Part shown: positions 4,416 through 55,225 of the stretch, in pieces
Layout: each line of letters starts with the position of its first letter
Numbering within the stretch: the stretch's first letter is position 1
DNA from: an uncultured Anaerolineaceae bacterium
GTDB lineage: Bacteria; Chloroflexota; Anaerolineae; Anaerolineales; DRMV01
Assembly: GCA_964386185.1 (NCBI GenBank)
Contig: CAYLRJ010000067.1
Coordinates: forward strand, 949 to 64,948
Direction of reading: 5' to 3'
DNA: 64,000 bases
Translations under genes and position numbers: made by a program
The notes under the pieces: model-generated
Databases searched by the model: none
What the model was told of the DNA's origin: nothing
The model's input: the letters and a program-made list of their open reading frames with translations, nothing else

Positions 4416-4860
4416 GAGGTTGGCTTTTCGGAGGGGAGGGGGCTGCAGGAAGGCCCTCAAAGGCTGCAATGGCTTGGCGCCACGTCGGCGGGATGGGGAT
4501 GGTGCGTTGATGACGATAGTCGAAGCATACTTGGATGCTTTCTCCGGTCGCCAAGAGCGCGCCACTTTCGGCGTCTTCCAGCCGATATTGCATAGGAAAA
4601 CTTTTGTTGCCCAGCCGAGGCACGCGAACCCCGATGCGCACGGGTTGGCCGAAGAGGATGGGCTGTTTGAATTCAACCCGAATTTCGGCCAAAATGATGC
4701 CCACATCGGGCATGACGCGAGGCTTCCAGAGCCCTAAGTGGAAGAGGTATCCCACCCGCCCTTGCTCCATATAGGTCAGATAGCGGGCGTTGTTGACGTG
4801 CCCTTGCGTGTCCAGGTCGCTGTAGCGGACTTCGATGGGATGGTAAAAGCGGAACGTCAT
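4390..4860 (-). CDS. Acyl-CoA thioesterase, 4HBT/YbgC-like hotdog fold
   Basis: 156-aa ORF. The N-terminus 'HPIEVRYSDLDTQGHVNNARYLTYMEQGR' is the 4HBT signature. No SD; TATAAT lies 6 nt upstream of the ATG. Confidence 0.85.
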   Translation of the reverse strand: MTFRFYHPIEVRYSDLDTQGHVNNARYLTYMEQGRVGYLFHLGLWKPRVMPDVGIILAEIRVEFKQPILFGQPVRIGVRVPRLGNKSFPMQYRLEDAESGALLATGESIQVCFDYRHQRTIPIPPTWRQAIAAFEGLPAAPSPPKSQPHERSTAAS

Positions 4861-4953
4861 ATTTAGATTATACCCTTTTTGCTGCCTGCGCGGTGGGCGA
4901 GGTTGGGGGTTTGGCGTTTTTGGGGTGGGTGAGGGGGTGTTGGAGGCGAAGTG

Positions 4954-4981
4954 TTGACAAGGAAAGGGAATGTGGTATTAT
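4954..4981 (+). promoter_or_regulatory. Sigma-70-type promoter for the marR-ABC exporter operon
   Basis: TTGACA (4954-4959), 16-nt spacer, TGgTATTAT extended -10 (4973-4981). The AGGAGAG SD at 5002-5008 precedes ATG 5015. Confidence 0.5.
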
Positions 4982-5014
4982 TTAGGCTCACTTATATTTT
5001 TAGGAGAGTTAACC

Positions 5015-5506
5015 ATGCCGGCGGATTTACCAGCGCGGGAAGGTCAAGAGCTCAAGGCGGTGTTGCAAGAGGTATTGGGGCAGTTGCTTCAATCTTCGAT
5101 GCACGCGTTTTGGCAGCGGGTGCGAGAGCAGGGGCTCTCGATGACGCAGGTTTTTGCGCTGCGTTACATTCACCGCCAGGGGGAATGCAACATTTCTGAT
5201 TTGGCCAAGGCTTTGGGCGTGTCGAATGCGGCGGCCAGTCAGATGTTGGACCGCCTGGTGCAGCAGGGCTATGTGCTTCGGCAGGAAAACCCGCGCGACC
5301 GCCGCAATAAGCGTTTGATGTTGACGCCTGAAGGGCAACAGGTATTGGCCGAGATTACCCCTTCGCGTCGGGCTGTGTTTGAAGAAGTGACGAAATTGCT
5401 CTCGCCGCAGGAAACCGCTGCGGTGACCGAAGCGTTGAGCCTGCTTCTGCGCAAAATGCGCGCCTCAGATGCTTTTTCAACGCCACCCCATTTCGAACAA
5501 TCTTGA
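5015..5506 (+). CDS. MarR family transcriptional regulator
   Basis: Winged-helix MarR pattern 'LSMTQVFALRYIHRQGECNISDLAKALGVSNAAASQMLDRLVQQGYVLRQENPRDRRNKRLMLTPEG'. Start moved to ATG 5015, which has a good SD; the track start is 4970. Confidence 0.85.
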   Translation: MPADLPAREGQELKAVLQEVLGQLLQSSMHAFWQRVREQGLSMTQVFALRYIHRQGECNISDLAKALGVSNAAASQMLDRLVQQGYVLRQENPRDRRNKRLMLTPEGQQVLAEITPSRRAVFEEVTKLLSPQETAAVTEALSLLLRKMRASDAFSTPPHFEQS

Positions 5507-5518
5507 GGGAGCCATTTC

Positions 5519-9690: not shown

Positions 9691-9879
9691 CCTCGGCCAA
9701 GGCGTGGCCGCGCCTCAGGTGGCCTAAACCTTGCAAAGCCATGAAGTGCGAGGCGCTTTGTTGCTTGGTGGCCTCGCGAGCCGCTCGCTGGGGTTGGGCG
9801 CGCCGCAGCCCAACCCGTGAAGGTGGGCATCGTGTGCCGCGAGTTCGGTCGCCGCTGAGGCGCGCGAGGCGTGGGTAAG

Positions 9880-9899
9880 CGGGGGCGTTTTCGCCCCCG
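9880..9899 (+). terminator. GC-rich hairpin downstream of ABC operon (possible terminator, no U-tract)
   Basis: CGGGGGCG-tttt-CGCCCCCG, a perfect 8-bp stem with a 4-nt loop. It is followed by gtcttgcg, which is not a proper T-run. Confidence 0.3.
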
Positions 9900-9953
9900 G
9901 TCTTGCGCACGCTGGCCCTGCGAAGCGAGGGACGACCCAAAGCCGCGGTTTTT

Positions 9954-9962
9954 TGATACAAT
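9954..9962 (+). promoter_or_regulatory. Extended -10 element (TGaTACAAT) 6 nt upstream of the PBP-like gene ATG; implies leaderless transcript
   Basis: TG at 9954-9955, TACAAT at 9957-9962, then ctcacc, then ATG at 9969. No SD is possible in the 6-nt gap. Confidence 0.4.
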
Positions 9963-9968
9963 CTCACC

Positions 9969-12725
9969 ATGCCGCATCTTTCGTACATCCTTCGGGCTCG
10001 TCGTCGTCGTGAGGCTGCGGCCCGCCGCCGTTGGAGCACGCGCCTGCGCCCTTGGGGGTTGGCCATCCTCATGGCGCTGGGCTTGGTGGTGGCCGGCGCG
10101 AGCGCGGCCGCGGCCGGAGGCTACGTTTACCTCACAGCCGACTTGCCCAGCCCGGCGGTGCTCCCGGCCTGGTTGGATGCCCCCCACGGGCTTTTGCTGA
10201 CCCCCAGCCGCTATTTGGCCGCCCAGGGGGAACCTTTGGCGGCTGTCGCTCCAGCCCCTCAGCCCGTGACCCTGAACGATTTGCCCGCCTACGCACCGCA
10301 GGCAATTTTGGCCGCAGTAGACCCTGATTTCTATGCCCAACCAGGGTATGCGGGGCATTTTTGGCAAACCGACCTGCCCCCCACGGTGGCTGAACGGTTG
10401 GCCACGCGGTTCCTGCTCTTTGCCGAGCCGGCCTCGACGCGACGCCGTTTGCGAGCCCGCATTTTGGCCGCCCAAATGGTTTCGCAATATGGCCACGACA
10501 AGGTCTTGACGTGGTATCTCAACATCGCAGATTTTGGGCATGGCTTCTACGGCCTTGAGGCTGCCAGCCAAGGCTATCTGGGTAAAAGCGCAGCTGATTT
10601 GAGCCTTTCGGAAGCCGCTTTGCTGGCGGCCATTTTGCCCGATCCGGCTCTCAACCCCTGGGACGCGCCCGAAATCGCGGAACAACGGCGGCAGCAACTC
10701 ATCATGACCATGCTGTCGCAAGCCCGCATCACCGCCCCGCAGAGTCAGGATGCCCTTCCTGACACCCCGCACGTGCTTCCCCCGCCTCAACAAGCGTCGC
10801 CTTCCCCGTTGCTGGTCTTGGCCAAGCAACAAGTGGCCGCCGACTGGCCCCTGCCAGAGCGCGGGCTGACGGTGTTTACATCGGTGGATGCGTCGCTCCA
10901 AGCCCAAGCCGATTGCCTGCGCGAGGCTGTTTTGCAGGCCTCGCCCAACGCCGAAAATCAATGCTCGGCGGCGCGTTTCTTGCCCCCGCTGCTGTTGGAA
11001 CACCCCTTGCCCCCCGATGCTGATTTGGAAGCCGTCGTGTTGGACGCGACCAACGGCAGCATTTTGGCCTTGAGCTTGCCGCAGCCTGAGCCGGCTTCTC
11101 ATCCGCCGGGCAGTGTTTTGGCGCCGTGGGTTTACGCGGTGGCGTTTTCGCGTGGGTTTGCCCCCGCAACCCTGACATGGGATGTCCCGGCCAGCCTGCC
11201 CTCGGGCGTCGAGGCGGCCAACGCCGATGGCGAATTCCACGGCCCCATGCGCCTGCGGGTGGCTTTGGCCAATGATTATCTGGTGCCCACGCTGCATCTT
11301 CTGGACCAGCTGGGGCCGCAGACGGTGTGGGCTACGGCGGCGCGCATTGGGCTCCCGGCTTTGCAGGGCCAAGCCGCGTTGGGGTATGGCTTGCTGCTCG
11401 ATCAAGGCCATCTGAACTTGGTTGAGCTGGCGCACGGCTATGAGGCTTTTGCCACGTTGGGGCGCTGGCGGGGGCTTCCCCACGATGAGGTGTTGACGGC
11501 CGACGTTTTGGCGCAGGTGGTTGACGCCGATGGCAATTTGCGGTTTGATTATCGCCCCGCCCAGCAGGGCGTGTTGAGCCCAGGCTTGGCTTATTTGGTC
11601 ACCGACGTGTTGGCCGACCAGGCGGCCAAGTGGCCTTCGTTGGGGCACCCTAACCCCTTGGAAATCGGGCGTCCGCTGGCCGCGCACGTGGGGCAAAATA
11701 GCGAAGGCGGGGTGTGGGTGGTGGGTTATACGCCGCGGCGGGTGATTGCAGTTTACGCGCAAGGCCGCACTGCGGCGCAAAGCCAAGATGCCGCCCTGGC
11801 CTATTGGCATGCTTTGGCGCGCGAGGCTTTGGCTTCTCAGCCTGTGGAAAGCTGGCCACGGCCGCCCGACATCACCGAGGTCACAGTGTGCGATCCTTCG
11901 GGTATGTTGCCCACGGCCGATTGCCCCAATTTGGTTGATGAGGTGTTTCTGCAAGGCACCGAACCCACCACGGCCGACACCCTTTATCGGCGTGTGGCGG
12001 TGGATCGGGAAACAGGCCTGCGGGCGACAGTGTTTACGCCTCCCCAGTTGGTTGAGGAGCAGGTGTTTATGATGGTGCCGCCTGAGGCCCGGGCTTGGGC
12101 GCAGCAAGCCGGCTTGCCTTTGCCGCCAGAGGGGTACGATTTGGTCACCTTGCCCCAGCCTTCGCCCAATGCAGTGTTGGTTTCGCCGCGCCCCTTTGCC
12201 TATGTCGAGGGGGAAGTGCCGCTGCGCGGCACCGCGGCGGGCGAAGGTTTTGCTTCCTATCGGGTGCAGGTGGGGCAGGGGCTGAACCCGCAAGCGTGGG
12301 TGGTGGTGGCCGAGGGCAAGCAGCCTGTGAAGGATGGCCTGCTGGGGCAGTGGCAAACCAAGGGCCTTAGCGGTCTGTATGCGGTGCAATTGCTGGTGAC
12401 TGACCAACAAGGCAAGGTGACCACGTTTACCACCCAAGTCACCGTGGATGATCGCCCGCCGCGAGTGGCTTTTGCGCGCCCCCGCGAGGCCGACGTGAAA
12501 GCGGCTGCGCAGCAAGGCCGTCTGATTGTGCAGGCTGAGGCCGAAGACGATTTGCGCCTTGCCTGGGTGCGCCTGGAGGTGGACGGCCGAGAAATCGCCA
12601 CTTTGCAGGCGCCGCCTTATCTGTTTGCTGTGCCGCTACAGCCCGGCGTCCATCGGCTGCGTTTGGTCGCGGCTGACGCAGCAGGTAACGAGAGCCAGGC
12701 TGTCCAAAAAATCGTTTTGCCATGA
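9969..12725 (+). CDS. Class-A penicillin-binding-protein homologue (GT51-like + transpeptidase-like + C-terminal Ig-like domains) with substituted catalytic motifs
   Basis: 918 aa with an N-terminal TM anchor. GT51 framework present ('DPDFY', 'KVLTWYLN', 'GLEAASQGYLGK..LSLSEAALLAAILPDP'). TPase framework present ('PPGSVLAPWVYA', 'WVVGYTP'). The catalytic E/E, SxxK lysine, SxN and KTG positions all differ (see findings). Confidence 0.85.
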   Translation: MPHLSYILRARRRREAAARRRWSTRLRPWGLAILMALGLVVAGASAAAAGGYVYLTADLPSPAVLPAWLDAPHGLLLTPSRYLAAQGEPLAAVAPAPQPVTLNDLPAYAPQAILAAVDPDFYAQPGYAGHFWQTDLPPTVAERLATRFLLFAEPASTRRRLRARILAAQMVSQYGHDKVLTWYLNIADFGHGFYGLEAASQGYLGKSAADLSLSEAALLAAILPDPALNPWDAPEIAEQRRQQLIMTMLSQARITAPQSQDALPDTPHVLPPPQQASPSPLLVLAKQQVAADWPLPERGLTVFTSVDASLQAQADCLREAVLQASPNAENQCSAARFLPPLLLEHPLPPDADLEAVVLDATNGSILALSLPQPEPASHPPGSVLAPWVYAVAFSRGFAPATLTWDVPASLPSGVEAANADGEFHGPMRLRVALANDYLVPTLHLLDQLGPQTVWATAARIGLPALQGQAALGYGLLLDQGHLNLVELAHGYEAFATLGRWRGLPHDEVLTADVLAQVVDADGNLRFDYRPAQQGVLSPGLAYLVTDVLADQAAKWPSLGHPNPLEIGRPLAAHVGQNSEGGVWVVGYTPRRVIAVYAQGRTAAQSQDAALAYWHALAREALASQPVESWPRPPDITEVTVCDPSGMLPTADCPNLVDEVFLQGTEPTTADTLYRRVAVDRETGLRATVFTPPQLVEEQVFMMVPPEARAWAQQAGLPLPPEGYDLVTLPQPSPNAVLVSPRPFAYVEGEVPLRGTAAGEGFASYRVQVGQGLNPQAWVVVAEGKQPVKDGLLGQWQTKGLSGLYAVQLLVTDQQGKVTTFTTQVTVDDRPPRVAFARPREADVKAAAQQGRLIVQAEAEDDLRLAWVRLEVDGREIATLQAPPYLFAVPLQPGVHRLRLVAADAAGNESQAVQKIVLP

Positions 12726-12905
12726 GCGGCTGCGGGGAAACTATCTCCCCCAGCCCAGACCGCGGAGCTATGTTGCCGTGGGGCAAGCATGAGAGGCGAG
12801 GTCCCGGCCACCGCGTGCCTGCATGGGCGTTGCGCGCAGGAAGGCTTTCGCCGTCTTTCACCCAGTAACTTCTCGCCCGGATGGGAGTTATACTTTAAAA
12901 GTAAA

Positions 12906-12914
12906 TGTTACAAT
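12906..12914 (+). promoter_or_regulatory. Extended -10 element (TGtTACAAT) in AT-rich patch upstream of the SARP-STAND regulator
   Basis: 12880-12930 is locally AT-rich (ttatactttaaaagtaaatgttacaataagacaatac). The TGnTACAAT matches the motif recurring at other gene starts in this window. Confidence 0.35.
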
Positions 12915-17679: not shown

Positions 17680-17773
17680 GACGACTCCGGCAGGCAAGAG
17701 GGTTGTTATAATTGAAGCCGTAGGGTTGCGGGCCTTGGGGCGTCGCACCATGACGCCTTGAATCTGCTTGCCC

Positions 17774-20456: not shown

Positions 20457-21233
20457 TTAGTGGCGCAGACGCCATCGCCAGCGCAAGCGCAGGGCCGGCG
20501 CCAGCGCCCGCCGCAGATAATATTTGCCCACAATGGGGGCTAACCAGTGTCCGCCTTCACGAAAGTGTACCCGTAGCATCTCGGGCCAACAGCGGTCATC
20601 GTCTTTGATGGTTTTGGCGTCGCCGTGCAGGCGGAAATTGGCCCACACCCGAGGCACATAGCGAATTTCGCTGATTTTGGCCAGGCGCACCCACAGGTCA
20701 TAATCCATCGCAAAGTAGAAACTGGGGTCTAAAGGCCCAACTTGTTTCCAAAGATTGGCGCGAAAGAACGCGGCTTGCTGCGGAATGTGGACGTACCCGC
20801 GGCGTAGTTTGCGGTAGTCGGTCTGTGCCGCGGGGAAGCGCCCAATGACCCGCCCTTGGGCGTCAATGTAGTTCGCGTCGCCATAAACCAGCCCCACTTC
20901 GGGGTGCGCGACCAGGAACGCCACAGCCTCACGCACCGCGTGGGGCTCGTAAGTGTCATCGGAGTTGAGCCAGGCCAAAATTTCGCCGTGGGCGTGGGCA
21001 AAACCTTTGTTGATGGCGTCGGTTTGCCCCTCATCGGGTTCTGAAACCCACCACGCCAGGCGGTCTGCGTAACGACGGATGATATCCACACTGCCATCGG
21101 TCGAGCCGCCATCAACAATGATGTATTCAATGTGTGGATAATCTTGAGCCAGCACCGATTGGATGGTGGCCTCAAGGAATTGGGCTTGATTGTAAGAGGG
21201 CGTAACGATGGTCACCAAAGGTTGTTCGGTCAT
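20457..21233 (-). CDS. Glycosyltransferase family 2
   Basis: '[42 protein letters not shown]' followed by a 'NSDD' DXD-like motif. No SD; TGcTATCAT lies 6 nt upstream of the ATG. Confidence 0.9.
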
Positions 21234-21264
21234 AGGCCAATGATAGCACGAAAACAGGGGAATG

Positions 21265-23163
21265 TCAGAACTCGATGTAGTTATCGACGTCGAAGAGGAA
21301 CACCGTCGCGCCCCCGACGGGGACGGGCTTGGGCCTGGGCAACGGCAAGATGTGGCCGGCTTTGGAGGCTACAAAATCAACTCGGCGGCGGCAACTGGCG
21401 CGCAGCGCCTGCACCACAGCCTCGATTTGCCCTTCAGGCACGCCAATGAGCAAAGTGACATTCGGCCGGCTCAGAAACCCGCCGCTGCTGATGATGGGCA
21501 CCACAGGCACCCCCAAGCGCCCCAGCGCCTCGGCCGCGGCTTCCAAATCGCGCTCTTGAATGATGGCCAAAGTCATGTGGCGAATGGGCGGATCGTTGGG
21601 CGAGCGCCGCAGCAACATCCCGGGCCAGGCCGGAAGTTGATCGCTGAGCGCACTGTCTACTTCTGAGGCCAATTCCGAAAAGACCTCTTCGCTGATGACC
21701 CCGGCTTGCAGCAGGTCCAAGAGGGCTGCTCGTTGGGCCCGCAATGATTCCAAACGGGCTTTGTGGAGCTCTTCCATTTGCAGCGCAGGGTGCTTTTGCA
21801 AAATCTCATTGACGGCCTTTTGAAGCCGTTGATTGCGTTGCTCCAACAAGGGGCGGAGCACATCCCACGTGTGGTGCGAGATGACGCCTTGTTCAAAAGC
21901 CCGCCGCAAATAATCATAGCCCGCGCGCGCCGAAACTGCCCGCGCGTGGCGTTTGGCAAATTCCTCTTTCTCTTCGTCGCGCGAGCCAATGTGGAGCCAC
22001 TTGAGCACCCACGGCATCGAGCCGCCTTGCACCAGCAGGGTAAACAACACCACCCCAAAAGCCATCACTTGCATTTGTTCGCGCACCGGCCCCAGGCTCT
22101 CGGGCAGCCCCAAGGCCAAAGCCAGGGAAACCGCACCCCGCAGCCCGCCCCAATACATGACATGTTTCCACGATAGGGGAATACGCTCGCCCACCCACGA
22201 AAGGCCATAAATGCTGAGCAGGCGGGCTATGAGAATGGCGCCCACCGCCCATAACACGGCATACCAATTGGTCATGAGCACATCAGGCCGAATCTGGAGG
22301 CCAATCAGCAAAAAGATGAACGAGTTGGCCAAGAAAGCCGCGAATTCCCAGAAGTTGACCACCACGATGCGGGTGGTGGGCGACATCCCGCGAGGGCCGA
22401 TGTTGCCGTTGATGAGCCCGGCAGCCACCACGGCCAACACCCCGCTGACGTGCAGTTGCTCGGCCACCAGGAACGCGCCATAAGCCAACACCGCGGTGAG
22501 GGCGGTTTCTAAGAGATAATCGTCCACGCGGGCAATCACGCTGGAAACCAGCCCGCCCAGCAGCACCCCTACGAGAAACCCGCCCCCCGCAACGCGGACG
22601 AAGTCAATGAGCCCCTGGCTCACGCTATATTGACCGGTCAGCGCAATGCCCAACAGCAGGTTGAACACCACAATGGCCGTGCCATCGTTGAACAGGCTTT
22701 CGCCTTCCAGCAAAACTTGGAGCCGCTTTGGGGCCCCCAAAGAGCGGAAGAGGGCCACCACGGCCACAGGGTCGGTGGCAGCCACCAAGGCGCCAAACAC
22801 CAGCGCCAAGGGCAAGGCCATGCCTAACCCATAGTGGATGATGAGCCCTACCACAGCGGTCGCCAACACCACCCCTACAATGGCCAACATCAAAATTACG
22901 CCCAAATCGCGTTTGAGGTCGTCCCATCGGATGTGAAACGCGGCTTCGAAAATCAGCGGAGGCACCAACACCCCCAAGATGAGCTCGCCGGTGATGGGCA
23001 CTTCCACTTCGGCAAAAATGGCCAACGCCAGCCCGATGAGCACCAGGCCCAAGGTATAGGGCATGCGCAAGCGGCGGCTGAAAATGCCGACCAGCACCGC
23101 GACGCCAAGGAGGGAAATCACAATCTCTTCGATGAAAATAATGCTGCTTGCGTGCATGATCAC
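21265..23163 (-). CDS. CPA1-family Na+/H+ antiporter (NhaP-type) with C-terminal DarA/PstA-like PII (cyclic-di-AMP receptor, DUF970) domain
   Basis: About 400 aa of Na_H_exchanger TM domain ('ATDPVAV', 'ESLFNDG', '[14 protein letters not shown]'), then a helical linker. The last 106 aa align with DarA/PstA ('SSGGFL', C-terminal '[17 protein letters not shown]'). The start may instead be ATG 23157. Confidence 0.9.
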
Positions 23164-23187: not shown

Positions 23188-25530
23188 TTAGTGAATTTCG
23201 ATTTCGTAGGGTTCGGCCGTCGTGAGCGTGTGTTCTTGGCCGTCGGGGGTCACCACCCGCGTGCGCCCCGGCCGGCGGTGGATTGCCCAACCCCAAAAGC
23301 GGACGGTGATTTCGTCTTCAAAGGGGGTGGGCCATACGAAGCGGACTTTGTGAGGGTTAACCGGCTGAATGCCGGCAACTTGCATCCAAAGCGCGACCGG
23401 CAACAGACCGGCCAAGACGTCTTGCCCTGCGAGCCCTTCGCCGGTTTCGGCGTGGTAGGCTTCCCAAAACGAGCCGGTGTGTTCCAGAGCAGTTTGGGCA
23501 GCGCGCCCCATGTTTTGGAGCAGCGCGGCTGCCTCGGCGACATGGCCATAACCCAAGAGGCCCTCAACCGCAAACAAATTCCAAGGGAAGTGGACCGCGC
23601 GCATCCATGCCGCGGCTTTGCGCCCCCGATGGGGGCTCAGCGGTGCGCCGAAGGGTTGGTTGTAGGCCCGTTCGGAAACCAGCGCGCGGCGGACGGCAGC
23701 GGCCTGCTCCGCTTCCCAGATGTGGGCCCAAAAGGGCAGCAAGAGGCTGATGTCGGGTGCGTAGAGGTCAGGGGTGAGCACCACAAAGCGCCCTCGGCTG
23801 CGCAGCCCTTCTACGGTGACGGCCTCGAGGCGGCGGTAGAGCCCGCGTGTGGTGAGGGTGCCGCGGCCTTCGAACCACTGGGCTTGCCCTGTTGAAAAAG
23901 TCTCGGTGAGGGGTTTGCCGCGCGGGTCGGTGCCGCGCAAGGTGACGGTCAGCGGCCGCACTTGCCCCTTTTCGGGGAAGAGGTGCACCACAATGCGGCT
24001 GGGCGGGGTGAGAGTGGCGGCGAGGGTCAAGGTGCCCGGGCCGCGGTGCTTCCCCAAGGTTTGGTGCGCCGGCCGTTGGTGGGTGTCACGGTCGCGGTAG
24101 AGGGCGGTGCGTCGGCGGGGGTCCCACATTTCGTGGAGGGCTTTGACGAGTTTGCGGCGCTGCGCCCGCAGGCTTTTGGGGAAGGTGGCCTCGGCCGCGG
24201 TGGCCAGCGCTTCCAGCCGATCCAGCGCGCGCACCAGCAAGGCGTAAAGGGCTGGGCTCTCGACGGTGGCGAAGTCGGTGCCGACCGATTCCCGTCGCCA
24301 GGGGGCAAAGCCCGGTGGGTCGGCCAGCCCCATTTGCAGGGGGTGCGACCATTCGGGGAGGCCGTCGCCGTTGGCGTCGGCGTGGGCAAACCAGTGTTCG
24401 ACAAAGCGCCGCAGGGCTGGGTAAATGGCGCGCTGGCCTGAAAGATCGTGGGCGTAGGCTCGGTAGGCCAGTTCGACCAGCAGCGGTGAGGCCAGGTAGC
24501 CTTGTGGGCCTTGGCTGGGCTTCCAGGGGATGAAGCCGTCTTCCCGTTGGTGGGCCAGGAAGTTGGCCACCCATCCCTGCACTGGCGCGGGGTGGGTGGG
24601 GAGGAAGTAAGCCGAGGCCAAGTAGTAGGCTTCCAGCACCGAAGGGGCGCGGTTGAGGGCCAGAGGGTCTGCAGGCCCGCCGTGGTCGGGGTCGCGGGCG
24701 GTCACGAAGAAGGGCTTGGGGAGGTTGGGGTGGGGCATCATCAGCCGCAGAGCCGACTGGCGACTGCGCACGAGGGCCCAGGTGAGGTTGGGCTGTGGGG
24801 TTTCGATGGCGGGAAGCGGGGCTTCGGCCAGGGCCAAACGGGCTTCAAAAGGCGGCCAGGGGCGGGCGGCCAGTTGGCGGGCTTGGGCGAAGCCTTCTTC
24901 CGCATGTTTCAGACTGGTGAGCACCCACGTCAGGCGGCGGGTTTCGGCGGGAGCAAGGGTGAAGGAGACGCTCAAAGAGGGAAAGGGGCTCAGCCGGCTT
25001 TCGGCGCCGCCGGTGAGAAACAACACGGGCGCTAAACCGCCCGCATGACCTTGCAAGATGTTGACCGCATGGCCTTGCTGAGGTTCCATCCCGCTGCCGT
25101 CTTCGCCCGGCAGGGGACGGAGCACCGCGGCTAACCCCAAGGCGCCTTGGCGTGGTGCCTCACTTGTGTTTTCCAGCCCCAGCTGGCCGACAACGGCTTG
25201 GCTGTGGGCAATCCAATAACGGCAGGTCAGCCGCAGCCCTGGGAAAGGCTCGCACGTGAGATGAGCATAGCCAGCGCTGAGCGCGTGGAGGGTGGGTGCC
25301 ACGGCAAAGGTTGCCGGCATCCAGCGGCGTTGCCCTTCGGTCTCCATGAAGGGGAAGAGGCTCATTTCCTGAACCCGCAAGCCGTAGGTGGTGGTGAGCG
25401 TGAGGGCTTCCCACGAGCCGTAGGTGGCGTGCAAAGCCCAAATGTGGTCGTCGGCGGTGTGCACGTCGCTCAGGTTGGCGTCTGCGGCCAGGGTGAGGCG
25501 AGCCGGTGGGCGGAAGGGAAGCGGTTGCAT
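23188..25530 (-). CDS. Large hypothetical protein, probable (alpha/alpha)6-barrel glycoside-hydrolase-like (GH63/GH15-like) C-terminal region
   Basis: 780-aa ORF with good codon usage. The central and C-terminal regions resemble six-hairpin glycosidases ('REDGFIPW', 'FWEAYHAETGEG'). The family assignment is by eye only. Confidence 0.55.
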   Translation of the reverse strand: MQPLPFRPPARLTLAADANLSDVHTADDHIWALHATYGSWEALTLTTTYGLRVQEMSLFPFMETEGQRRWMPATFAVAPTLHALSAGYAHLTCEPFPGLRLTCRYWIAHSQAVVGQLGLENTSEAPRQGALGLAAVLRPLPGEDGSGMEPQQGHAVNILQGHAGGLAPVLFLTGGAESRLSPFPSLSVSFTLAPAETRRLTWVLTSLKHAEEGFAQARQLAARPWPPFEARLALAEAPLPAIETPQPNLTWALVRSRQSALRLMMPHPNLPKPFFVTARDPDHGGPADPLALNRAPSVLEAYYLASAYFLPTHPAPVQGWVANFLAHQREDGFIPWKPSQGPQGYLASPLLVELAYRAYAHDLSGQRAIYPALRRFVEHWFAHADANGDGLPEWSHPLQMGLADPPGFAPWRRESVGTDFATVESPALYALLVRALDRLEALATAAEATFPKSLRAQRRKLVKALHEMWDPRRRTALYRDRDTHQRPAHQTLGKHRGPGTLTLAATLTPPSRIVVHLFPEKGQVRPLTVTLRGTDPRGKPLTETFSTGQAQWFEGRGTLTTRGLYRRLEAVTVEGLRSRGRFVVLTPDLYAPDISLLLPFWAHIWEAEQAAAVRRALVSERAYNQPFGAPLSPHRGRKAAAWMRAVHFPWNLFAVEGLLGYGHVAEAAALLQNMGRAAQTALEHTGSFWEAYHAETGEGLAGQDVLAGLLPVALWMQVAGIQPVNPHKVRFVWPTPFEDEITVRFWGWAIHRRPGRTRVVTPDGQEHTLTTAEPYEIEIH

Positions 25531-25730
25531 GAAAGTATTTTACCTTACATTTAGGCCTGTGAGGCGGAGCGTGAGCCGTGTTGAGGCGCGGCCTGCGGGT
25601 TCCTGCGTTGGTGCGCAGCGGCGGGCTGATCGCGGTGGGCATGCCAGCGGAAGGCGGGGTGGGGCGCTGTGTCACCCCTTGACAAAAAATAATGATAACC
25701 TGCGCCAGCGGCGCTTTTGGGCCTTGATGA

Positions 25731-27704
<1,974 letters not shown>

Positions 27705-30639: not shown

Positions 30640-32679
30640 ATGACCGCGCCCCGTGATGCCATCCATCAGGCTTTGACCGACGCGGCCCTGCAAGCCGCGC
30701 TGGACGCCAACGCACAGCGCCGCCGCACAGCTCGCGCCCGCGCCCATGCTTCCTTGCCCGAGCCCTGGGAAGTGTTGCGGAAGCGCGCCGCGCGTGTGCG
30801 GGATGAAATCCTGGCCCAGTGGGATGGGGTCTTTGCTCAGTTTGTCGGCAAGGCCCGCCAGAATGGCTTCCACGTCCATCTGGCTGCCACAGCCGAAGAA
30901 GCCCGAGCGATTGTGCTGCAAATCGTCAACGCCCAAGGGCCGGCCCCGCGCCGCATTGTCAAATCCAAATCTATGGTCACCGAAGAAATTGGCCTCAACG
31001 CGGCGCTGGAAGCCGCAGGGCACCACGTGGTCGAGACCGATTTGGGCGAATTCATCATTCAACTGCGCGGCGAACGCCCGGCTCACATCATCACCCCCGC
31101 GGTGCATCTGCGCCGTCAAGAAGTAGCCCAAACCTTCCATCAGAAATTGGGCATGCCCTACACCGAAGACGTGGAAGCCATGACCGCCACCGCGCGCCGT
31201 CACCTGCGAGAGGCTTTTCTCCAGGCCGATGTGGGCATCAGCGGCGTCAACTTTGGCATTGCCCAAACCGGCGGCCTCTGCATCGTCACCAACGAGGGCA
31301 ACGGCCGGATGGTCACCACCTTGCCGCGGGTGCATATTGCGGTGATGGGGGCGGAGCGCTTGGTGCGCACGCCGGCCGAATTGGCGCTGATGCTGGAATT
31401 GCTGCCGCGCTCGGCAACAGGGCAAGATTTGACGGTGTACACCTCCCTCATCCACGGCCCTCGCCGGCCCGGGGACCCCGACGGACCTCAAGAGCGCCAC
31501 TTGGTCATTGTAGATAACGGCCGCCGTCGCCTCTCCCAAACCCCGCTGGCCGACGCTTTGCGGTGCATTCGCTGTGGTGCTTGCCTCAATACGTGCCCGG
31601 TGTTCCAGGAAATCGGCGGGCATGCTTACCTTGGTCGCCACGGTGAGCCGACGCCCTACCCCGGCCCCATTGGGATTGTCATTTCGCCAGGGCTTTTTGG
31701 CGCCGAAACGTTTGGCAACTTGCCCTATTTGTGTACTTTGTGTGGCGCGTGCGCCGAGGCCTGCCCGGTCGAAGTGCCCCTGCCCGACTTGATTTTGCGG
31801 GCGCGAGCAGGGTTTGCGCCTCCCGGCCCTCCTTCGGCATCGGCCGAGCGCGAGGCCGCGTTCGGTGACGCGGGCGACGCACGGCAAGCCCACCGCCCCC
31901 CTTGGCGGGGCTTTTTGGCGCTCTATGCTTGGGTTGCGACCCGCCCGCGCCTTTTTGCCCTGGCCCGAGGGCTGATGCGCCCGGCGGCGCGGGTTTTGGC
32001 GCCCCTCACGCGCATTCCCTTCCTGCAAGGGGTCACCCGCCCGACGCCCCCGCCCCCCCAGCCTGCGCGTCGCACCTCCACCGAGGCGCCTGCGCCCCCG
32101 CGGCCTTCAGCACCAGAGGCCGCGCCTGCGGCGTTCCCCCGCACGCCCGAAGCCCTCACCCGCAAGTTCATCGCAGCCCTGACGGCCCTGCAGGGCGAAG
32201 TAATCACCGTTGCCGACGAGGAAGCCGCAGGGCAGGCCCTGGCCGCTTTCCTGCAAAGGGAAGGCCTGACCGAGGTGCTCTCGTGGGCGCCAGAACATTT
32301 GCCCGCCGCTGTGGTGACCGCACTGCGCGATGCCGGGGTTACGCTGGTGACGCCTGCTGGCGAGCCTCCCACCGCCGTCGCAAATTATCGTGTGGGCCTG
32401 ACCGCCGCCTTGGCAGGCATTGCCGCCACCGGTAGTTTGATCACCCCCGGCGGCGCCGGCCGCCCCCAAGTGGCTTCGCTCTTGCCAGAAATTCACCTCG
32501 CGGTGCTCCCCGCCAAGGCCATCGTGCCCGACCTGACCACAGCCTTGCAACTGCCGGCGGTGACTCGCTCGGCCATGACCAGCATCATCACAGGCCCTTC
32601 GCGCACCGCCGATATTGAAATGACCCTGACCATTGGGGTGCATGGGCCCAAGCGGGTGGTGGTGTTCTTGATAGAATAG
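30640..32679 (+). CDS. LutB-LutC fusion protein (LUD-domain iron-sulfur lactate-utilisation-type oxidoreductase)
   Basis: The N-terminal two-thirds is LutB-like, with two 4Fe-4S motifs 'CIRCGACLNTCP' and 'CTLCGACAEACP'. A Pro-rich linker follows, then a LutC/LUD domain ('GIAATGSL..', 'IITGPSRTADIE'). Confidence 0.85.
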   Translation: MTAPRDAIHQALTDAALQAALDANAQRRRTARARAHASLPEPWEVLRKRAARVRDEILAQWDGVFAQFVGKARQNGFHVHLAATAEEARAIVLQIVNAQGPAPRRIVKSKSMVTEEIGLNAALEAAGHHVVETDLGEFIIQLRGERPAHIITPAVHLRRQEVAQTFHQKLGMPYTEDVEAMTATARRHLREAFLQADVGISGVNFGIAQTGGLCIVTNEGNGRMVTTLPRVHIAVMGAERLVRTPAELALMLELLPRSATGQDLTVYTSLIHGPRRPGDPDGPQERHLVIVDNGRRRLSQTPLADALRCIRCGACLNTCPVFQEIGGHAYLGRHGEPTPYPGPIGIVISPGLFGAETFGNLPYLCTLCGACAEACPVEVPLPDLILRARAGFAPPGPPSASAEREAAFGDAGDARQAHRPPWRGFLALYAWVATRPRLFALARGLMRPAARVLAPLTRIPFLQGVTRPTPPPPQPARRTSTEAPAPPRPSAPEAAPAAFPRTPEALTRKFIAALTALQGEVITVADEEAAGQALAAFLQREGLTEVLSWAPEHLPAAVVTALRDAGVTLVTPAGEPPTAVANYRVGLTAALAGIAATGSLITPGGAGRPQVASLLPEIHLAVLPAKAIVPDLTTALQLPAVTRSAMTSIITGPSRTADIEMTLTIGVHGPKRVVVFLIE

Positions 32680-32685
32680 TGCCCC

Positions 32686-33276
32686 ATGACCACTGAGGAA
32701 CGCACCTACACCCTGACCGATCCGCTCACCGGCCGCCTTGTGCCCGTGGTGGTGCGCCGCGATCGGCGGCTGCGCAAAACCGTCCGCTGGGAACGCCGCG
32801 GCGATGGCCGCCTCGTGGTGCGCATGCCGGCTACCTTCCCCTGGCGGAGGGTGCCTTCCCTCCTCCAGGAGATCGAAGCCGAATGGGTGCAGCTGGCCGC
32901 CCGGGCGGCGCGGCGCACCGATGACGATTTGGCGCAGCGCGCCCGAGAGATTAATCGGCGCTATTTTGATGGCCAGGTCCATTGGGAGGCCATCCGTTGG
33001 GTCAGCAACATGGAAAAACGCCTGGGCAGCGTGACCTTGGGCGGAAAGACCCACGGCCACATTCGGATTTCTGATAAAATCCGCTCTTGGCCGCAGTGGG
33101 TGATTGATTATGTGATCGCCCATGAGTTTGTGCATCTGTTGCAGCCTTCAGAAGGCCATAGCGCCGTCTTTTGGCAGACGCTGCAGGCCCATTATCCCCT
33201 CACCGAACGCGCCCGTGGCTTCATTGCGGGTTATTTCTTTGCGCAGAACGCGCAGCCGGAGGACGATTTCTTATGA
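32686..33276 (+). CDS. YgjP-like (DUF45) M48-type metal-dependent hydrolase
   Basis: C-terminal 'WVIDYVIAHEFVHLLQPSEGHS' HEXXH motif in the DUF45 context. TGaTAGAAT lies 8 nt upstream of the ATG. Confidence 0.8.
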   Translation: MTTEERTYTLTDPLTGRLVPVVVRRDRRLRKTVRWERRGDGRLVVRMPATFPWRRVPSLLQEIEAEWVQLAARAARRTDDDLAQRAREINRRYFDGQVHWEAIRWVSNMEKRLGSVTLGGKTHGHIRISDKIRSWPQWVIDYVIAHEFVHLLQPSEGHSAVFWQTLQAHYPLTERARGFIAGYFFAQNAQPEDDFL

Positions 33277-38265: not shown

Positions 38266-38274
38266 ATTATAACA
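38266..38274 (-). promoter_or_regulatory. Extended -10 element (TGtTATAAT) for the Thx gene
   Basis: The reverse complement of 38266-38274 is TGTTATAAT, about 35 nt upstream of the Thx ATG. Confidence 0.5.
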
Positions 38275-39685: not shown

Positions 39686-39714
39686 AGATTAGCATACGCG
39701 CTTTTGAAAGTCAA
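39686..39714 (-). promoter_or_regulatory. Sigma-70-type promoter for the LysM lipoprotein gene
   Basis: The minus strand reads TTGACT (39714-39709), 17-nt spacer, TGcTAATCT (39694-39686). This leaves a 5' UTR of about 90 nt. Confidence 0.4.
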
Positions 39715-41401: not shown

Positions 41402-41493
41402 AACTTCCTCGCTGTTGTCGGCAATGTTTGAAAATTTTATATTGTTTATAATTATACCCGCTTTCTGGACGCTCCCCTTGAGAAGGAAGTCCT

Positions 41494-43172: not shown

Positions 43173-43396
43173 AGAACCTCCTTGTTGGCCGGAAAACGGA
43201 CGGGCATCTTCACTTTTATCTTAGCATAAGTTGGTTAAATGGAGATAAACATACGCGCCAGGGGGCGGCGGGCGCGGGGCGCTGCGGCCTCGCTTTTGCT
43301 CGTTGTCCCGCGGGGGATGGTTCCCCCACCGCAATCGTCGCCTGCAGAGGGAAACTTGTGCTAAACTTGCATCAAGCCCCGTGCAGGAGGTGGAAG

Positions 43397-43900: not shown

Positions 43901-43977
43901 ACCCGCAGCGAATCTGGCCTCGCGGCGCCGAGACGACGTGTATAATCACACCATGCTGTGGAAAGTTTAGGTGACCG

Positions 43978-45918: not shown

Positions 45919-45939
45919 GCCTTGTTTTCGAGAGATGCC

Positions 45940-47385
45940 ATGACCACGGAAGAAACGCTGGAACCCACTGCCGAAGATTTAGCCGCCGAAGAGGCCTACA
46001 CCCGCGGTTGGGGCGACGAGGTCGATAGCGACCCAGTGTACCTCTACCTTCGGGAAATTGGCCAGGCCAAGCTGCTCACAGCCGATCAGGAATTTTGGCT
46101 CGCGACCATGATCGCCGCGCACAAACAGGTGCAATGGCTGCAAGCCCACCCCAAAGCGCGGGGGCAGGGCGAAACCACCCCCCGGCGGTTGTATTGCGCG
46201 CTTTATACCGAAATGGTGACGGCCTGGCAGCGGGCGTTGGAAGACGTCGCCCGCTGGGGCTGCGAACCCCCCGATTTTGCCCTCCTGACCGCCGAAGCCC
46301 AAATGCTTCACCAAACCTGGCAGAGCGAAACCCCTTCCTACGTCCGGGCGTATCTCAACAATGGCTCATGGGGCAAAGACCCCTTTTGGGATGGCGTTGC
46401 CGCCCAGGTCGTCGCCGTGTTCATCGCGGTCTATGCCCTGCCCGCCGAAGTCGCCGAAGCCTTGGTGCGGTTTCATACCAAACGCCAGCGCTTGCCGTCC
46501 GAGCGCACGTTCCGCCGCTACCTCCCCGACGATGAAGTGCTGCGGGCCGAATTGACAGCCATTGCCGCGCGCGCCGAAGTCGCCCGGACGGCTTTGATCC
46601 GCTCTAACCTGCGGCTGGTGGTCAGCGTAGCCAAACGCTACGTAGACCGTGGCGTGCCCTTGTTGGACCTCATCCAAGAGGGAAATCTGGGGCTGTTGCG
46701 CGCGATTGACAAATTCGACCCTGCCCGCGGCTACAAATTCAGCACCTACGCCACCTGGTGGATTCGGCAGGCCGTGACCCGAGCCATCGCTGAGCAAGCG
46801 CGCACCATTCGGGTGCCGGTCCACATGATTGAGTCGTGGCAAAAATTGCGGAAAATCCAACGCCAACTCACGCAGCGCTTGGGCCGCGAACCCACCTTGG
46901 AAGAAATCGCCTTGGAAAGCGGCTTCCTGAGCGACGAAGAGGCCAAAGCCATTCGCACAGCCCTCGAAGAAGGCCAGCCCCTTTCCCCCCATCTGCAACA
47001 GCGGTGGCGTTTTGCCACAGGCAAGGTGCGCAAGGTGTTTCGCGCCACAGAAGAGCCCCTCTCGCTGGAAAGCAGCATGGGCGACGAAGAAAACAACGCC
47101 CTGGGCGATTTTGTGGAAGATACCGAAACCCTGCGCCCTCTGGACCAAGCCACCCGAGACATGCTGCGCGAGCAAGTGCAAAACGTTTTAGCTGCCCTGA
47201 CCGAACGCGAGCGCCAGGTGTTGGAACTCCGCTTTGGCCTGCTCGATGGCAAGTCGCACACCTTGGAAGAAGTCGGGCGTTATTTCAACGTCACGCGCGA
47301 GCGGGTGCGGCAAATCGAAGCCAAAGCGTTGCGCAAACTCCGTCACCCTTCCTACAGCCGTCACCTGCGGGATTATCTGGAATGA
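45940..47385 (+). CDS. rpoD: RNA polymerase primary sigma factor (sigma-70/SigA)
   Basis: Region 2 '[53 protein letters not shown]' and region 4 '[29 protein letters not shown]'. ATG 45940 is preferred over the TTG at 45922. Confidence 0.95.
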
Positions 47386-47525: not shown

Positions 47526-47534
47526 TGTTAGAAT
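47526..47534 (+). promoter_or_regulatory. Extended -10 element (TGtTAGAAT) upstream of pdxS
   Basis: TG 47526-47527, TAGAAT 47529-47534. GGAGG SD at about 47577. Confidence 0.4.
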
Positions 47535-49163: not shown

Positions 49164-49196
49164 ACCGAAAATCACCGCGCGCCTAAGGTTTGGCTG

Positions 49197-50129: not shown

Positions 50130-50213
50130 AACGGCCTGGCCGCCGGGCGCAACATGGCTTCAACCTGAAGCGCATTCCCCCTGGGGCTTAGGTTGGATAC
50201 ACCCTGAGGTTCT

Positions 50214-52432: not shown

Positions 52433-52460
52433 GTGTTATCTCAGGGCTTGGTTTGTCTCG
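52424..52460 (+). terminator. Intrinsic terminator after tmk
   Basis: AAGCCCTGAG-tgttat-CTCAGGGCTT, a perfect 10-bp stem overlapping the tmk stop codon. It is followed by the T-rich ggtttgtctcggtttg. Confidence 0.55.
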
Positions 52461-52495
52461 GTTTGTCAGGGCCTCGCGAGCGGAGAGGGAGGCTT

Positions 52496-53626
52496 TTAGG
52501 CACTGAGGATTTCCAAAAGCCAGCGCAGGGCTTGCTCTGCGGTGGCTTTTTTGTTGCCGATGCGGTCGTGAGGCCATACGAAGCGCTGGGCTACTGTGGT
52601 CAGGGGCGTGCTCACGGCGATCCAAGTGGTGCCGACGGGTTTTTCGGGGGTGCCGCCGCTGGGGCCGGCGATGCCGCTGACGGCCACGGCCACTTCGGCT
52701 GCGAGCGCGCGTTTGGCGCCTTCGGCCATGAGCCGCACGACAGGTTCGCTGACGGCCCCGTGGGCTTCTAACACGCGCCAAGGCACCCCCAGCAGGCGCA
52801 CTTTGGCGTCGTAAGCATAGGCCACAATGCCGCCGGCAAAGTAGGCCGAAGAACCGGGGATGTCGGTGAGGCGGCTGCCAATCAAGCCGCCGGTGCAAGA
52901 TTCGGCCGTGGCGAGCCGCCAACCCCGCTCGACCAGCAGAGGCCCCAGCAGGGCCTCGGGCGCGTGGAAGGAGGTTTCCGGGAGGTCTTGGCCTTCCATC
53001 TCTGCGGCCAGGGCTTCGAAATAAGCGCGCATGACTTGATCGCGGCGCGCGGCCAGGGCCCGCGCCGGCGGGGTGAAGAGCCGCTCGCGCAGGCGGCGCA
53101 GCTTGAAAAGGTATTCGTGATAGGCGCTGTAAACTTCGCCGGGGGCGGTTTGTCCGGTTTTTAGGAAGTGTTCCGAGGGCGGCGCGTAGGCCGGGTTGTG
53201 GTGCCGAAAGGCATAGGCCAGCGCGCGCGCCACGCCTACAGCGCCGATGGCATCCAATTTATCCGCATCAAAGAGCACTTGGGCCTCGAGGGTGCGGGGC
53301 TGTTCGCCGCTGCGGAAGCGGTGGGTGCGGATGGCTTCTTCCACCGCGGCAATGCGGTCTTCGGGCCAGCCTTTTTGGGCAAGCACTTGCCGCGCGAACG
53401 CGGCCGAGGCGTTGTGGTGGCCGTCGCGGGCGGTGCTTTCCGTAGGGCCGTGGGCACCACTGGCATCGTGCAGCAAGGCCGCCGCGCGCACGATGGCTTC
53501 GTCTGCGCCTACTTGGCGCGCCAAATATTCGGCCAGGCGCACCACGCGCAGGATGTGCCCAAAGCCGTGGGTCGGGTCGTCGTCGTACCAAGCGCGGGCT
53601 TCTTCAAGGGTGAGAGATGGGCTCAT
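52496..53626 (-). CDS. HD-domain phosphohydrolase fused to CinA C-terminal / PncC (NMN amidohydrolase) domain
   Basis: N-terminal '[15 protein letters not shown]...FDADKLD' (HD). C-terminal '[31 protein letters not shown]' (PncC/CinA_C). ATG 53626 is chosen ([10 protein letters not shown]..). Confidence 0.85.
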
Positions 53627-53651
53627 GGCGTGGTCACTTTGGTCGTGGTGG

Positions 53652-53843
53652 TCACTTGAGGAAGTAGAGGGCCAGGCTCCCTGCCACAGCGAGGAGCGCA
53701 ATCACAAGGCAGCCGATGGTGAAAATTCGCCAGGCCAGCCGCAGGAGAAATTTGAGCGCCAGAAGGCCTAAAATCAGCCCCGCGGCAACGAGAAGCAGAG
53801 AAGCGGTATTGGAGATTTCCAAAAGCGTTAGTTGGGCGTGCAT
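53652..53843 (-). CDS. Hypothetical small membrane protein (2 TM, 63 aa)
   Basis: Hydrophobic ORF '[41 protein letters not shown]'. Start is uncertain (53843 or 53891), and it overlaps the hutI 3' end. Confidence 0.45.
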
Positions 53844-55105
53844 ACGACACCTTCCTCGATGCGATAGAATCGCCCCCGCTTGACCACCCATCCTATGGGA
53901 TTGGTGCCAAAGCGGTAGGTCAGATGGCGGTAGTCGTCGGTAGTCAGGATGAGGAAGTCGGCTTGTTTGCCCACTTCCAGGGAACCGATGCGGTCGGCTC
54001 TTTGGATGGCGGCTGCTGCGTTGATTGTGGCGGCCGCCAGTGCTTGCGCGGGCGTGAGCCTCATGGCTCGGGTGGCCAACGCCATGGCAAAGGGCATGCT
54101 TTCACACCATGCGGTGCCGGGGTTGCAGTCGGTGGCCAGCGCCAGCAGGCCATTGGCCGCCAAAATGGCTTGGGCTGGTGTGTAGTGGGGCTCGGCCAGG
54201 CCAAAGGGGGTGCAGGGGAGGGCGACCGCGACGGTGTCGGAGGCGCCCAGGGCGCGGATGTCGGCTTCGGAAGTCGTGACCAGGTGGTCTGCGGAAACGG
54301 CGCCCAGCGCCGCGGCCAGGGCGGCGCCGCCCAAATTGTCGAATTCGTCGGCGTGAACTTTGAGGGGAAAGCCCAAAGCCTTGGCCGTTTCGAGGATGCA
54401 GCGGGTTTGTTCAAGGTTGAAGGCGCCGGTTTCGCAGAAGACGTCAACAAAGGGGAGAGGCCGGCCGGCTGCGTGTTCGCTCCACCAGGCTTTGAGCGCG
54501 GGCAGCATCTCGTGGCAAATCAGGCGGGCGTAATCGTCGCCGCGGCCTTTGAACTCTGGCGGGATGGCGTGGGCGGCGAGGAACGTCGGCGCCAGCTCCC
54601 ACGGCCCTTCGTCGTCCAGCGCGAGAATGGCTTCCAGCATCTTGAATTCGGCGGCGGTCGCGAGGCCATAGCCGGTTTTGACCTCGATGGTGGTGGCGCC
54701 GTGGGCAAAGGCGCGCAGCAAGCGAGGGCGGGTTTCGGCCATCAGCGCCTCAACCGAGGCTTTGCGGGTGGCTCGCACGGTGGATAGGATGCCCCCGCCC
54801 GCTTGGAGGATTTCCAGATAGGTTTTGCCCTCCAGGCGCATTTCAAATTCGGCTGCGCGCTCGCCTGCCCAGAGTAGATGGGTGTGAGGGTCCACCAAAC
54901 CTGGGACCACCGCCCGCCCCTGCGCGTCAAAGCGCGGCTCGTGGGGGTAATCGGGCAAGAGGGCGTCTTCCGGCCCCAACGCGACGATGCGGCCTTCTCG
55001 GACCACCAACGCGGCTTGAGGGATGATGCGCAAATGGCCCAAACGGTGCCCGCGTTGAGGCCCGCCTTGGGGGGTGACCAGTTGGCCAATGTTGTGGATG
55101 AGCAT
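53828..55105 (-). CDS. hutI: Imidazolonepropionase
   Basis: 'GLVDPHTHLLWAGERAAEFEMRLEGKTYLEILQAGGGI', 'KVHADEF' and 'SADHL' amidohydrolase motifs. No SD; TATAAT lies 6 nt upstream of the ATG. Confidence 0.92.
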   Translation of the reverse strand: MLIHNIGQLVTPQGGPQRGHRLGHLRIIPQAALVVREGRIVALGPEDALLPDYPHEPRFDAQGRAVVPGLVDPHTHLLWAGERAAEFEMRLEGKTYLEILQAGGGILSTVRATRKASVEALMAETRPRLLRAFAHGATTIEVKTGYGLATAAEFKMLEAILALDDEGPWELAPTFLAAHAIPPEFKGRGDDYARLICHEMLPALKAWWSEHAAGRPLPFVDVFCETGAFNLEQTRCILETAKALGFPLKVHADEFDNLGGAALAAALGAVSADHLVTTSEADIRALGASDTVAVALPCTPFGLAEPHYTPAQAILAANGLLALATDCNPGTAWCESMPFAMALATRAMRLTPAQALAAATINAAAAIQRADRIGSLEVGKQADFLILTTDDYRHLTYRFGTNPIGWVVKRGRFYRIEEGVVCTPN

Positions 55106-55225
55106 GTAGCAATTATAACTTGCCTTCGTGAAACGCGAGCATTGGCGTATAATGGACGTATCCGCACTGCCGCGTGTAAGTGTCGGGCGATTTTTGGGTT
55201 TGGTGCTTGCCAGTTGAGGAAGGGG

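Follow-up and report, generated by a model that had tools for sequence, protein, structure and literature searches.

Leaderless ("TA-led") genes in bacterial genomes are marked by a TANNNT box with its first T some 12 bp upstream of the start codon (Zheng 2011, PMC3160421). The same survey found them in 4 of 12 Chloroflexi genomes, where they averaged 4.7% of genes (about 4-6%), with a TAtaaT-type box, and reported that orthologs change initiation mode with phylogenetic distance (PMC3160421). Group C of GeneMarkS-2 is likewise characterized by a Pribnow box at a distance of 6-8 nt from the start, at a level of 25-50% of operons (Lomsadze 2018, PMC6028130), and Anaerolineae are listed with about 58% use of the Shine-Dalgarno (SD) sequence (PMC10783764); our literature search turned up no paper that maps transcription starts in Anaerolineae. 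Here we analyze a stretch of 64,000 nt (the window; positions 949 to 64,948 of contig CAYLRJ010000067.1, assembly GCA_964386185.1) from an uncultured Anaerolineae (Chloroflexota) bacterium, in which five genes, encoding a thioesterase, a PBP-like transglycosylase, a GT2 glycosyltransferase, a GH-like protein and the imidazolonepropionase HutI, have a -10 hexamer 6 nt before an ATG that lacks an SD. Since the signature was defined by the TA-led survey and by GeneMarkS-2 group C, this is a known kind of gene start, here in a new lineage; a claim that it is unusual is not supported, the signature having been described for Chloroflexi as well (PMC3160421, PMC6028130).

We propose that two modes of initiation operate side by side in this organism. 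Most genes would be expressed from mRNAs with a 5′ leader carrying a GGAGG-type SD. A minority, comprising the five genes above and possibly a YgjP-like gene, would be transcribed from housekeeping, SigA/sigma-70-type promoters in which exactly 6 nt separate the -10 hexamer from the ATG. Six nucleotides is the canonical length of the sigma-70 discriminator, and RNA polymerase normally starts at the seventh base after the -10 hexamer. A gap of this length would thus place +1 on the A of the ATG, so that the mRNA would begin with AUG and have no leader. Such an mRNA would be bound through its 5′-terminal AUG, paired with the initiator tRNA, along a 70S or an IF2-dependent route and without SD contact. 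We hold it to be very probable that SigA promoters starting transcription at the A of the ATG give rise to leaderless mRNAs beside an SD-led majority, and the two translation-initiation modes announced by a first-pass annotation of this DNA are supported at the sequence and comparative levels. About one gene in ten (5-6 of the 53 in the window) is most likely -10-led, SD-less and made as a leaderless mRNA, judging from these signals.

Hexamers at start codons without a Shine-Dalgarno sequence

The gene map was rebuilt from gene calls on ENA metagenome contig ERZ27262694:k141_329342 (90.6 kb; window position + 21951 = contig position), which gave a set of 53 genes at window positions -787 to 64946; the G+C content of the window is 61%. 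TANNAT-N6-ATG occurs 6 times in the window versus 1.09 +/- 1.0 times in shuffles, none of 100 shuffles reaching 6, and five of the six matches are gene starts, the sixth being the site upstream of dnaG. The element TGNTANAAT is present 8 times where 1.72 copies are expected (0 of 100 shuffles reached 8); six copies are intergenic and upstream of a gene, and two are in coding sequence, at 32669 across the stop codon beside the YgjP-like start and at 33072 within the YgjP-like gene. For a scan of all gene starts, hexamers were defined as TAnnnT with at most one mismatch to TATAAT. With both strands counted, 70.7 kb contain 71 of these, a rate of 5.0e-4 per position and strand, from which 0.027 of the 53 starts are expected to have one at any one spacer; five were observed at spacer 6 and one at spacer 8, and no TATAAT-like hexamer precedes any of the 53 gene starts at spacers 0-5 or 7. 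The excess at spacer 6 has a Poisson P of about 1e-10 against the window-wide hexamer rate and of about 3e-4 with the richer local upstream rate and a correction for 75 spacers.

The ATG next to the box appears to be the true translation start. In the five genes and the YgjP-like gene (Table 1) it is the 5′-most ATG, GTG or TTG of its own open reading frame (ORF) and coincides with the choice of an independent gene caller (exact-protein matches; the 918-aa and 258-aa calls come from the listing). Gene-caller bias was considered as an explanation and rejected, since the starts are the 5′-most of their ORFs. No in-frame start with an SD lies within 80 codons downstream of the candidate ATGs. A scan for matches to AAGGAGGTGA within the last 22 nt before the start found no SD match of at least 5 nt at these six, whereas 26 of the other 47 genes have one and 10 more have a 4-nt match; the remaining 11 lack both an SD and a -10 box.

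The proteins point the same way. The Pfam GT2 domain begins at residue 8 in GT2 and Pfam 4HBT_2 at residue 11 in the thioesterase, and the N-termini of both are kept in their closest relatives (80-96% aa identity). Conservation of the GH-like N-terminus starts at M1 across 12 homologs (778-783 aa), with F6, R7, P8, P9 and A10 invariant, and more than 20 HutI orthologs share the N-terminus MLIH. As expected of a class A PBP, the PBP-like protein combines a basic tail with a membrane helix, and homologs match it in length; across relatives at 68-84% the ATG, the protein length and a downstream LxxILR motif are kept, and residues 2-5 vary.

The first-pass annotation had quoted its sequences at their correct positions, and what it said of five genes with a hexamer 6 nt before an SD-less ATG was confirmed by the pattern counts and the SD scan, as was its view that the N-termini are family-typical by Pfam domain positions and homolog alignments. 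Its judgment that such boxes are unlikely to stand at gene starts by chance agrees with both the shuffle and the Poisson test. Its title, which called all five boxes extended -10 elements, was right about hexamer and spacing and overstated the rest: only two carry a TGn extension, PBP-like (TGa) and GT2 (TGc), the other three being preceded by GGG-, AGG- and AGT-. The GT2 promoter is complete (-35, TG and -10) and scores 10/12 with TG in an independent promoter scan; the thioesterase box has neither a TG extension nor a -35 box.

The neighborhoods of these genes differ. The thioesterase, GH-like and hutI genes face divergent genes, and the PBP-like gene stands behind a 278-nt gap. GT2 follows a co-directional gene by 31 nt, with the TGA stop of that gene lying within the GT2 -35 box. 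The intergenic gap before the YgjP-like gene is only 6 nt, and its hexamer overlaps the TAG stop (32677-32679) of the co-directional gene upstream. The sequence that had been reported there, TGa-TAGAAT followed by 8 nt, is present, yet this overlap and its mostly absent conservation at about 50% identity leave the YgjP-like gene a weak case, a possible near-leaderless start.

Conservation in relatives and rival explanations

Three genomes, GCA_054002375.1, GCA_013154225.1 and GCA_054042965.1, each syntenic with part of the window, were used for comparison, together with several more distant contigs (comparison loci carry L numbers below). Among GTDB species-representative genomes the closest hutI relatives are from Anaerolineae/Anaerolineales metagenome-assembled genomes (MAGs) at no more than 68% identity; NCBI holds closer MAGs, at 80-87%. 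Two Logan contigs (L003, L005) were dropped as a test of conservation because, at 99.9% identity to the window, they are uninformative on it, and a metagenome scan with the GH-like protein as query found nothing.

Upstream of the PBP-like gene, four genomes at 68-84% aa identity have TTTGATACAAT-N6-ATG unchanged, while the spacer, constant in length, differs among them at the first five of its six positions (ctcacc in the window, catcac at 84%, ggaagc at 69%, cacccc at 68%). The GH-like gene keeps GGTAAAATACTTyCATG in L087 (80%) and L088 (64%), where the DNA further upstream is unalignable. For GT2, TGcTATCATtggcctATG is identical in L087 and L089, as is the alignment row TGcTATCATtggcct-ATG in two relatives, and the 17-nt spacer between -35 and -10 diverges. 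The thioesterase gene of L089 (88% aa identity) has TATAAT-ctgagt-ATG for TATAAT-ctaaat-ATG in the window, and hutI of L093 (86%) has TATAAT-tgggcc-ATG for TATAAT-tgctac-ATG. All five genes thus keep the -10 box and its 6-nt distance from the ATG in relatives at 64-87% protein identity, where the gap sequence and the DNA upstream have changed, so that box and spacing are under selection.

Orthologs also toggle between a -10-led and an SD-led start. In L095 (84%) and L097 (75%) a GGAGG SD replaces the hutI box before the very same ATG. Among the MLIH orthologs, the window, L093 and L026 have a -10 box 6-7 nt upstream, and an SD leader is found in L095 and L097 (GGAGG), L012 (AGGAG) and L017 (GGAG), so that toggling spans 66-86% identity. 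A CheY-like response regulator of about 207 aa, encoded near hutI in other Chloroflexota MAGs and without an ortholog in the window, behaves similarly: TAnnAT precedes its ATG by 6 or 7 nt in 7 of 9 genomes (L008, L007, L062, L010, L015, L019 and L022), and the gene is GGAG-led in L018 and L047.

The preference for this spacing extends beyond the window. The first-pass annotation had proposed to look genome-wide for a peak at 6-7 nt in the distance from the -10 element to the start; a related test on 37 Chloroflexota MAG loci (570 kb) was a caller-free count of TANNAT-Nd-ATG sites whose ATG opens at least 100 sense codons. Spacer 6 is over-represented, with 20 sites at d=6 and 13 at d=7 against a background mean of 6.8 (P=3e-5); a stricter count of 5′-most starts only gives 12 versus about 3. 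Loci from other phyla have no peak at spacer 6 (11 versus 15.5), and Acidobacteriota have 0 sites at d=6.

Further starts were noticed in the comparison loci. The smpB gene of L097 (8224-8679, minus strand), the relative with 75% identity in hutI, has gTGaTAAAAT-gaggcc-ATG, another extended -10 start of the leaderless type in the lineage. In four Pyrinomonadaceae (Acidobacteriota) hutI loci (L038, L039, L041, L042) TAnAAT stands 10-12 nt before an ATG without an SD, which suggests very short leaders of 3-5 nt and a spacing class unlike that of the Chloroflexota loci.

Several observations weigh against leaderless initiation. We infer +1 at the A of the ATG from promoter geometry alone. Three of the five boxes have neither TG nor -35 and would be weak promoters by E. 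coli standards. Orthologs of hutI at 68% identity or less mostly lack a -10 at +6, keeping the start codon with a mostly SD-type leader, and hence indicate turnover and lend no support; YgjP-like orthologs at about 50% identity, collected in a metagenome scan, share the N-terminal type, and a TATAAT 8 nt upstream is found in L102 and L103 only. GT2 and the YgjP-like gene, which lie downstream of co-directional genes, could also be translated from read-through transcripts, and it is for these two that another explanation is most plausible, namely that the transcripts are longer, leadered and SD-less, and that the hexamer acts in the RNA, as an unstructured or S1-binding enhancer or in termination-reinitiation coupling, rather than as a promoter. 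The short distances to the upstream genes, and at the YgjP-like gene the overlap with the upstream stop, favor it, and the 11 genes with neither signal mean that SD-independent initiation on leadered mRNA must exist here. Those same 11 genes, however, show no such hexamer. The strict T-A-n-n-n-T pattern and the exact 6-nt gap fit promoter geometry, the motif recurs 28-144 nt before other, mostly SD-led genes, GT2 has a matching -35 box and a TG extension, and three of the five genes face divergent genes or long gaps and so would probably need a promoter of their own. We consider a role of the hexamer in leadered RNA unlikely.

If instead the boxes were real promoters and the annotated ATGs wrong, translation would begin at a downstream codon on an ordinary leadered mRNA. 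The start codons do rest on sequence evidence, but no downstream in-frame start with an SD is available within 80 codons, the Pfam domains of GT2 and the thioesterase begin at residues 8-11, the GH-like protein and HutI show residue conservation that begins at position 1 (as do, in relatives at 80-96%, the thioesterase and GT2), and hutI orthologs place their GGAGG SD before the very same ATG; misplaced starts are accordingly very improbable. We give even less credence to the idea that A/T-rich hexamers stand next to start codons by chance, in intergenic DNA that is itself richer in A/T. The sample of 53 genes is small and such hexamers are more frequent in intergenic than in coding DNA, but the shuffle and Poisson tests reject chance, the peak falls at a single spacer, the arrangement is conserved across genomes with variable spacer sequence, and independent Chloroflexota loci show this peak where other phyla do not. 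Leaderless initiation at the five genes fits all available sequence-level tests.

Leadered promoters, the dnaG mini-ORF and other features

TATAAT-type hexamers also precede other genes in the window by 28-144 nt; most of these genes are SD-led, and they include marR, gyrB, Thx, hpf, pdxS, YtxH and SBP5 (Table 1). The marR ATG lies 33 nt after the -10, with a leader of about 27 nt and an AGGAG SD, and the pdxS ATG 54 nt after it, with a leader of about 48 nt and a GGAGGT SD. The claim that leadered genes share a TGnTAnAAT box holds for gyrB, Thx, pdxS and the SARP regulator and fails in the strict sense for marR (TATTAT), LysM (TAATCT) and hpf (TAAGAT). The start at GTG 12942, with an SD, once assigned to the SARP regulator is not supported: this codon reads ACG in L089, and the conserved ATG 12999 is the start by gene caller and closest relative, which gives a leader of about 78 nt with no clear SD; the longest ORF starts at 12789.

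A TG extension, at -15/-14, is found in 10 of 38 intergenic, gene-pointing boxes versus 15 of 228 elsewhere (Fisher P=7.6e-4). Matches to TTGACA at 16-19 nt are no better than 3/6 in 16 of 20 putative promoters and reach 5-6/6 in four (chance rate 1.3%), those of marR, SBP5, LysM and GT2, where the first-pass annotation had counted only two clear -35 boxes. These figures suggest that many promoters here lack a recognizable -35 and rely on the -10 element, often with TGn. The primary sigma factor SigA, encoded in the window, is the presumed reader of the boxes. Its RVPVHMIE sequence holds what we take to be the His/Glu pair that contacts TG in E. coli sigma-70 (H455/E458). The pair is almost universal, and its presence in SigA is a weak test.

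Table 1. Promoter elements, leaderless-type gene starts and the sigma factor gene in the window
Feature	Position	Strand	Elements and remarks
Thioesterase (4HBT) unit	4858..4872	-	TATAAT 4867-4872, gap ctaaat, ATG 4858-4860
PBP-like transglycosylase unit	9954..9971	+	TGaTACAAT, 6-nt gap ctcacc, ATG 9969
GT2 glycosyltransferase unit	21231..21268	-	CTGACA 21263-21268, 17 nt, TGcTATCAT, gap tggcct, ATG 21231-21233
780-aa GH-like (MGH1-like) unit	25528..25542	-	TAAAAT, 6-nt gap actttc, ATG at 25530; no TG extension
hutI (imidazolonepropionase) unit	55103..55117	-	TATAAT, 6-nt gap tgctac, ATG at 55105
YgjP-like gene (weak case)	32669..32688	+	TGaTAGAAT, 8-nt gap, ATG 32686
dnaG promoter	43941..43970	+	TATAAT, 6 nt, ATG opening the 5-codon ORF MLWKV-stop (43953-43970)
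marR promoter	4954..4981	+	TTGACA 4954-4959, 16 nt, TGgTATTAT; kept in L089
SARP/BTAD-AAA-TPR regulator box	12906..12914	+	TGtTACAAT
YtxH-like gene (17857) box	17704..17712	+	TGtTATAAT; kept in L087 and L089; absent from the first-pass list
gyrB extended -10	25751..25759	+	TGgTAGAAT, 28 nt before a GTG start with GGAGGT SD; kept in L087
Thx (bTHX) extended -10	38266..38274	-	TGtTATAAT; gene SD-led (AGGAGGTG)
LysM gene promoter	39686..39714	-	TTGACT 39709-39714, 17 nt, TGcTAATCT
hpf extended -10	43218..43226	-	TGcTAAGAT; gene SD-led (AAGGAGGT)
Primary sigma factor SigA	45940..47385	+	From the Pfam listing; contains RVPVHMIE
pdxS extended -10	47526..47534	+	TGtTAGAAT; kept in L093
SBP5/opp promoter	58827..58854	+	TTGACA, 16 nt, TATAAT; ATG 124 nt after -10

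At dnaG, the sixth TANNAT-N6-ATG match opens not the gene but a mini-ORF, as the first-pass annotation had correctly cautioned. The TAG stop of this mini-ORF overlaps the AGGTGA SD of dnaG, whose ATG is at 43978. TATAAT-cacaac-ATG is kept upstream of dnaG in L093, the 86% relative (locus position 21059, minus strand), where the mini-ORF continues for at least 12 sense codons without a stop in the stretch read and overruns the dnaG ATG out of frame. From its layout it is a possible leaderless regulatory mini-ORF, comparable to the leaderless small ORFs that reportedly occur in mycobacteria. Taken together, these observations could mean that leaderless initiation is a regular but labile second mode in Anaerolineae, used by about 10% of genes, that orthologs at 75-87% flip between a -10 at +6 and a GGAGG leader, and that any promoter with +1 on an ATG yields a translated mini-ORF, as at dnaG; we offer this combined proposal tentatively and with more doubt than confidence. 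If it is true, the mini-ORF, ending in or overlapping the dnaG ribosome-binding site, could tune the translation of primase.

Another small ORF lies in the SBP5 leader of about 118 nt (window 58827-58981, plus strand). It starts from TTG 58910 after AAAGGAGGTG, encodes MKIPLPVRPLFSRFNQKF followed by a stop, and its TAA overlaps the SBP5 SD; a 16-codon version, MKVPFIVRPFLPFPQF and a stop, is conserved in L093. On these grounds a leader peptide rich in Pro and Phe is possible. Neither an Rfam nor a tRNA scan of the window returned a match, so the leaders and long gaps contain no known RNA family.

A few other features of the window deserve mention. At 41434-41456 two perfect TATAAT boxes overlap on opposite strands in an A/T-rich near-palindrome, TTTATAATTATA, forming back-to-back promoters between divergent genes of 156 aa and 322 aa. 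A Na+/H+ exchanger (21265-23157, minus strand) has a C-terminal fusion to a PF06153 cyclic-di-AMP receptor (PII-like) domain; the fusion is kept in L087 and L088. Two called genes without Pfam hits, at 56487-57146 (minus strand) and 55849-56643 (plus strand), are convergent with a 157-nt overlap; the start of the minus-strand gene is 21 nt away from that of dnaA, L093 has calls for both as well, and one of the two calls may be spurious. In the region 57168-58978, dnaA is not adjacent to dnaN, and its distance from gyrB is about 30 kb. DnaA boxes form no cluster around dnaA; the 10 one-mismatch matches in the window, versus 5.3 expected, are scattered.

Comparison with described systems

Gene starts in uncultured Chloroflexota are mostly annotated with SD-based models. 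A share of about one gene in ten that is -10-led and SD-less in this lineage would help the calling of starts and the prediction of promoters and operon breaks in MAGs, and the orthologs of hutI and of the response regulator are clean natural examples of one start codon under either mode. The current understanding of translation initiation is unchanged; one more lineage is added to a documented pattern.

The experimentally mapped leaderless transcriptomes of Mycobacterium (Cortes 2013; Shell 2015) and Deinococcus deserti (de Groot 2014), as cited in PMC6028130 and PMC5397173, resemble what is proposed here in having a -10 at -12 to -7 of the AUG at +1 and no 5′ UTR. In those organisms 25-60% of transcripts are leaderless, with direct proof from transcription starts and proteomics, whereas here the share is lower and is predicted from the DNA. 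Mycobacteria also use GTG in leaderless starts, while all five candidates here have ATG. The boxes share with the extended -10 promoters of E. coli and Gram-positive bacteria (TGnTATAAT) a TG one base upstream of the -10, the lack of a recognizable -35 in most cases, and a SigA that keeps the region 3.0 His/Glu pair; they depart from that class in that three of the five leaderless promoters have neither TG nor -35.

The closest likeness is to TA-led genes. As in those, the first T of the box lies about 12 bp before the start, equivalent to the 6-nt gap, an SD is lacking, SD-led genes stand alongside, and orthologs switch between the modes. Unlike the genomes of the TA-led surveys, the window comes from an uncultured Anaerolineae lineage outside them, its local share is somewhat higher (5-6 of 53 genes, about 10%), and TGn is common at its leadered promoters; the genome as a whole would probably not reach the group C level.

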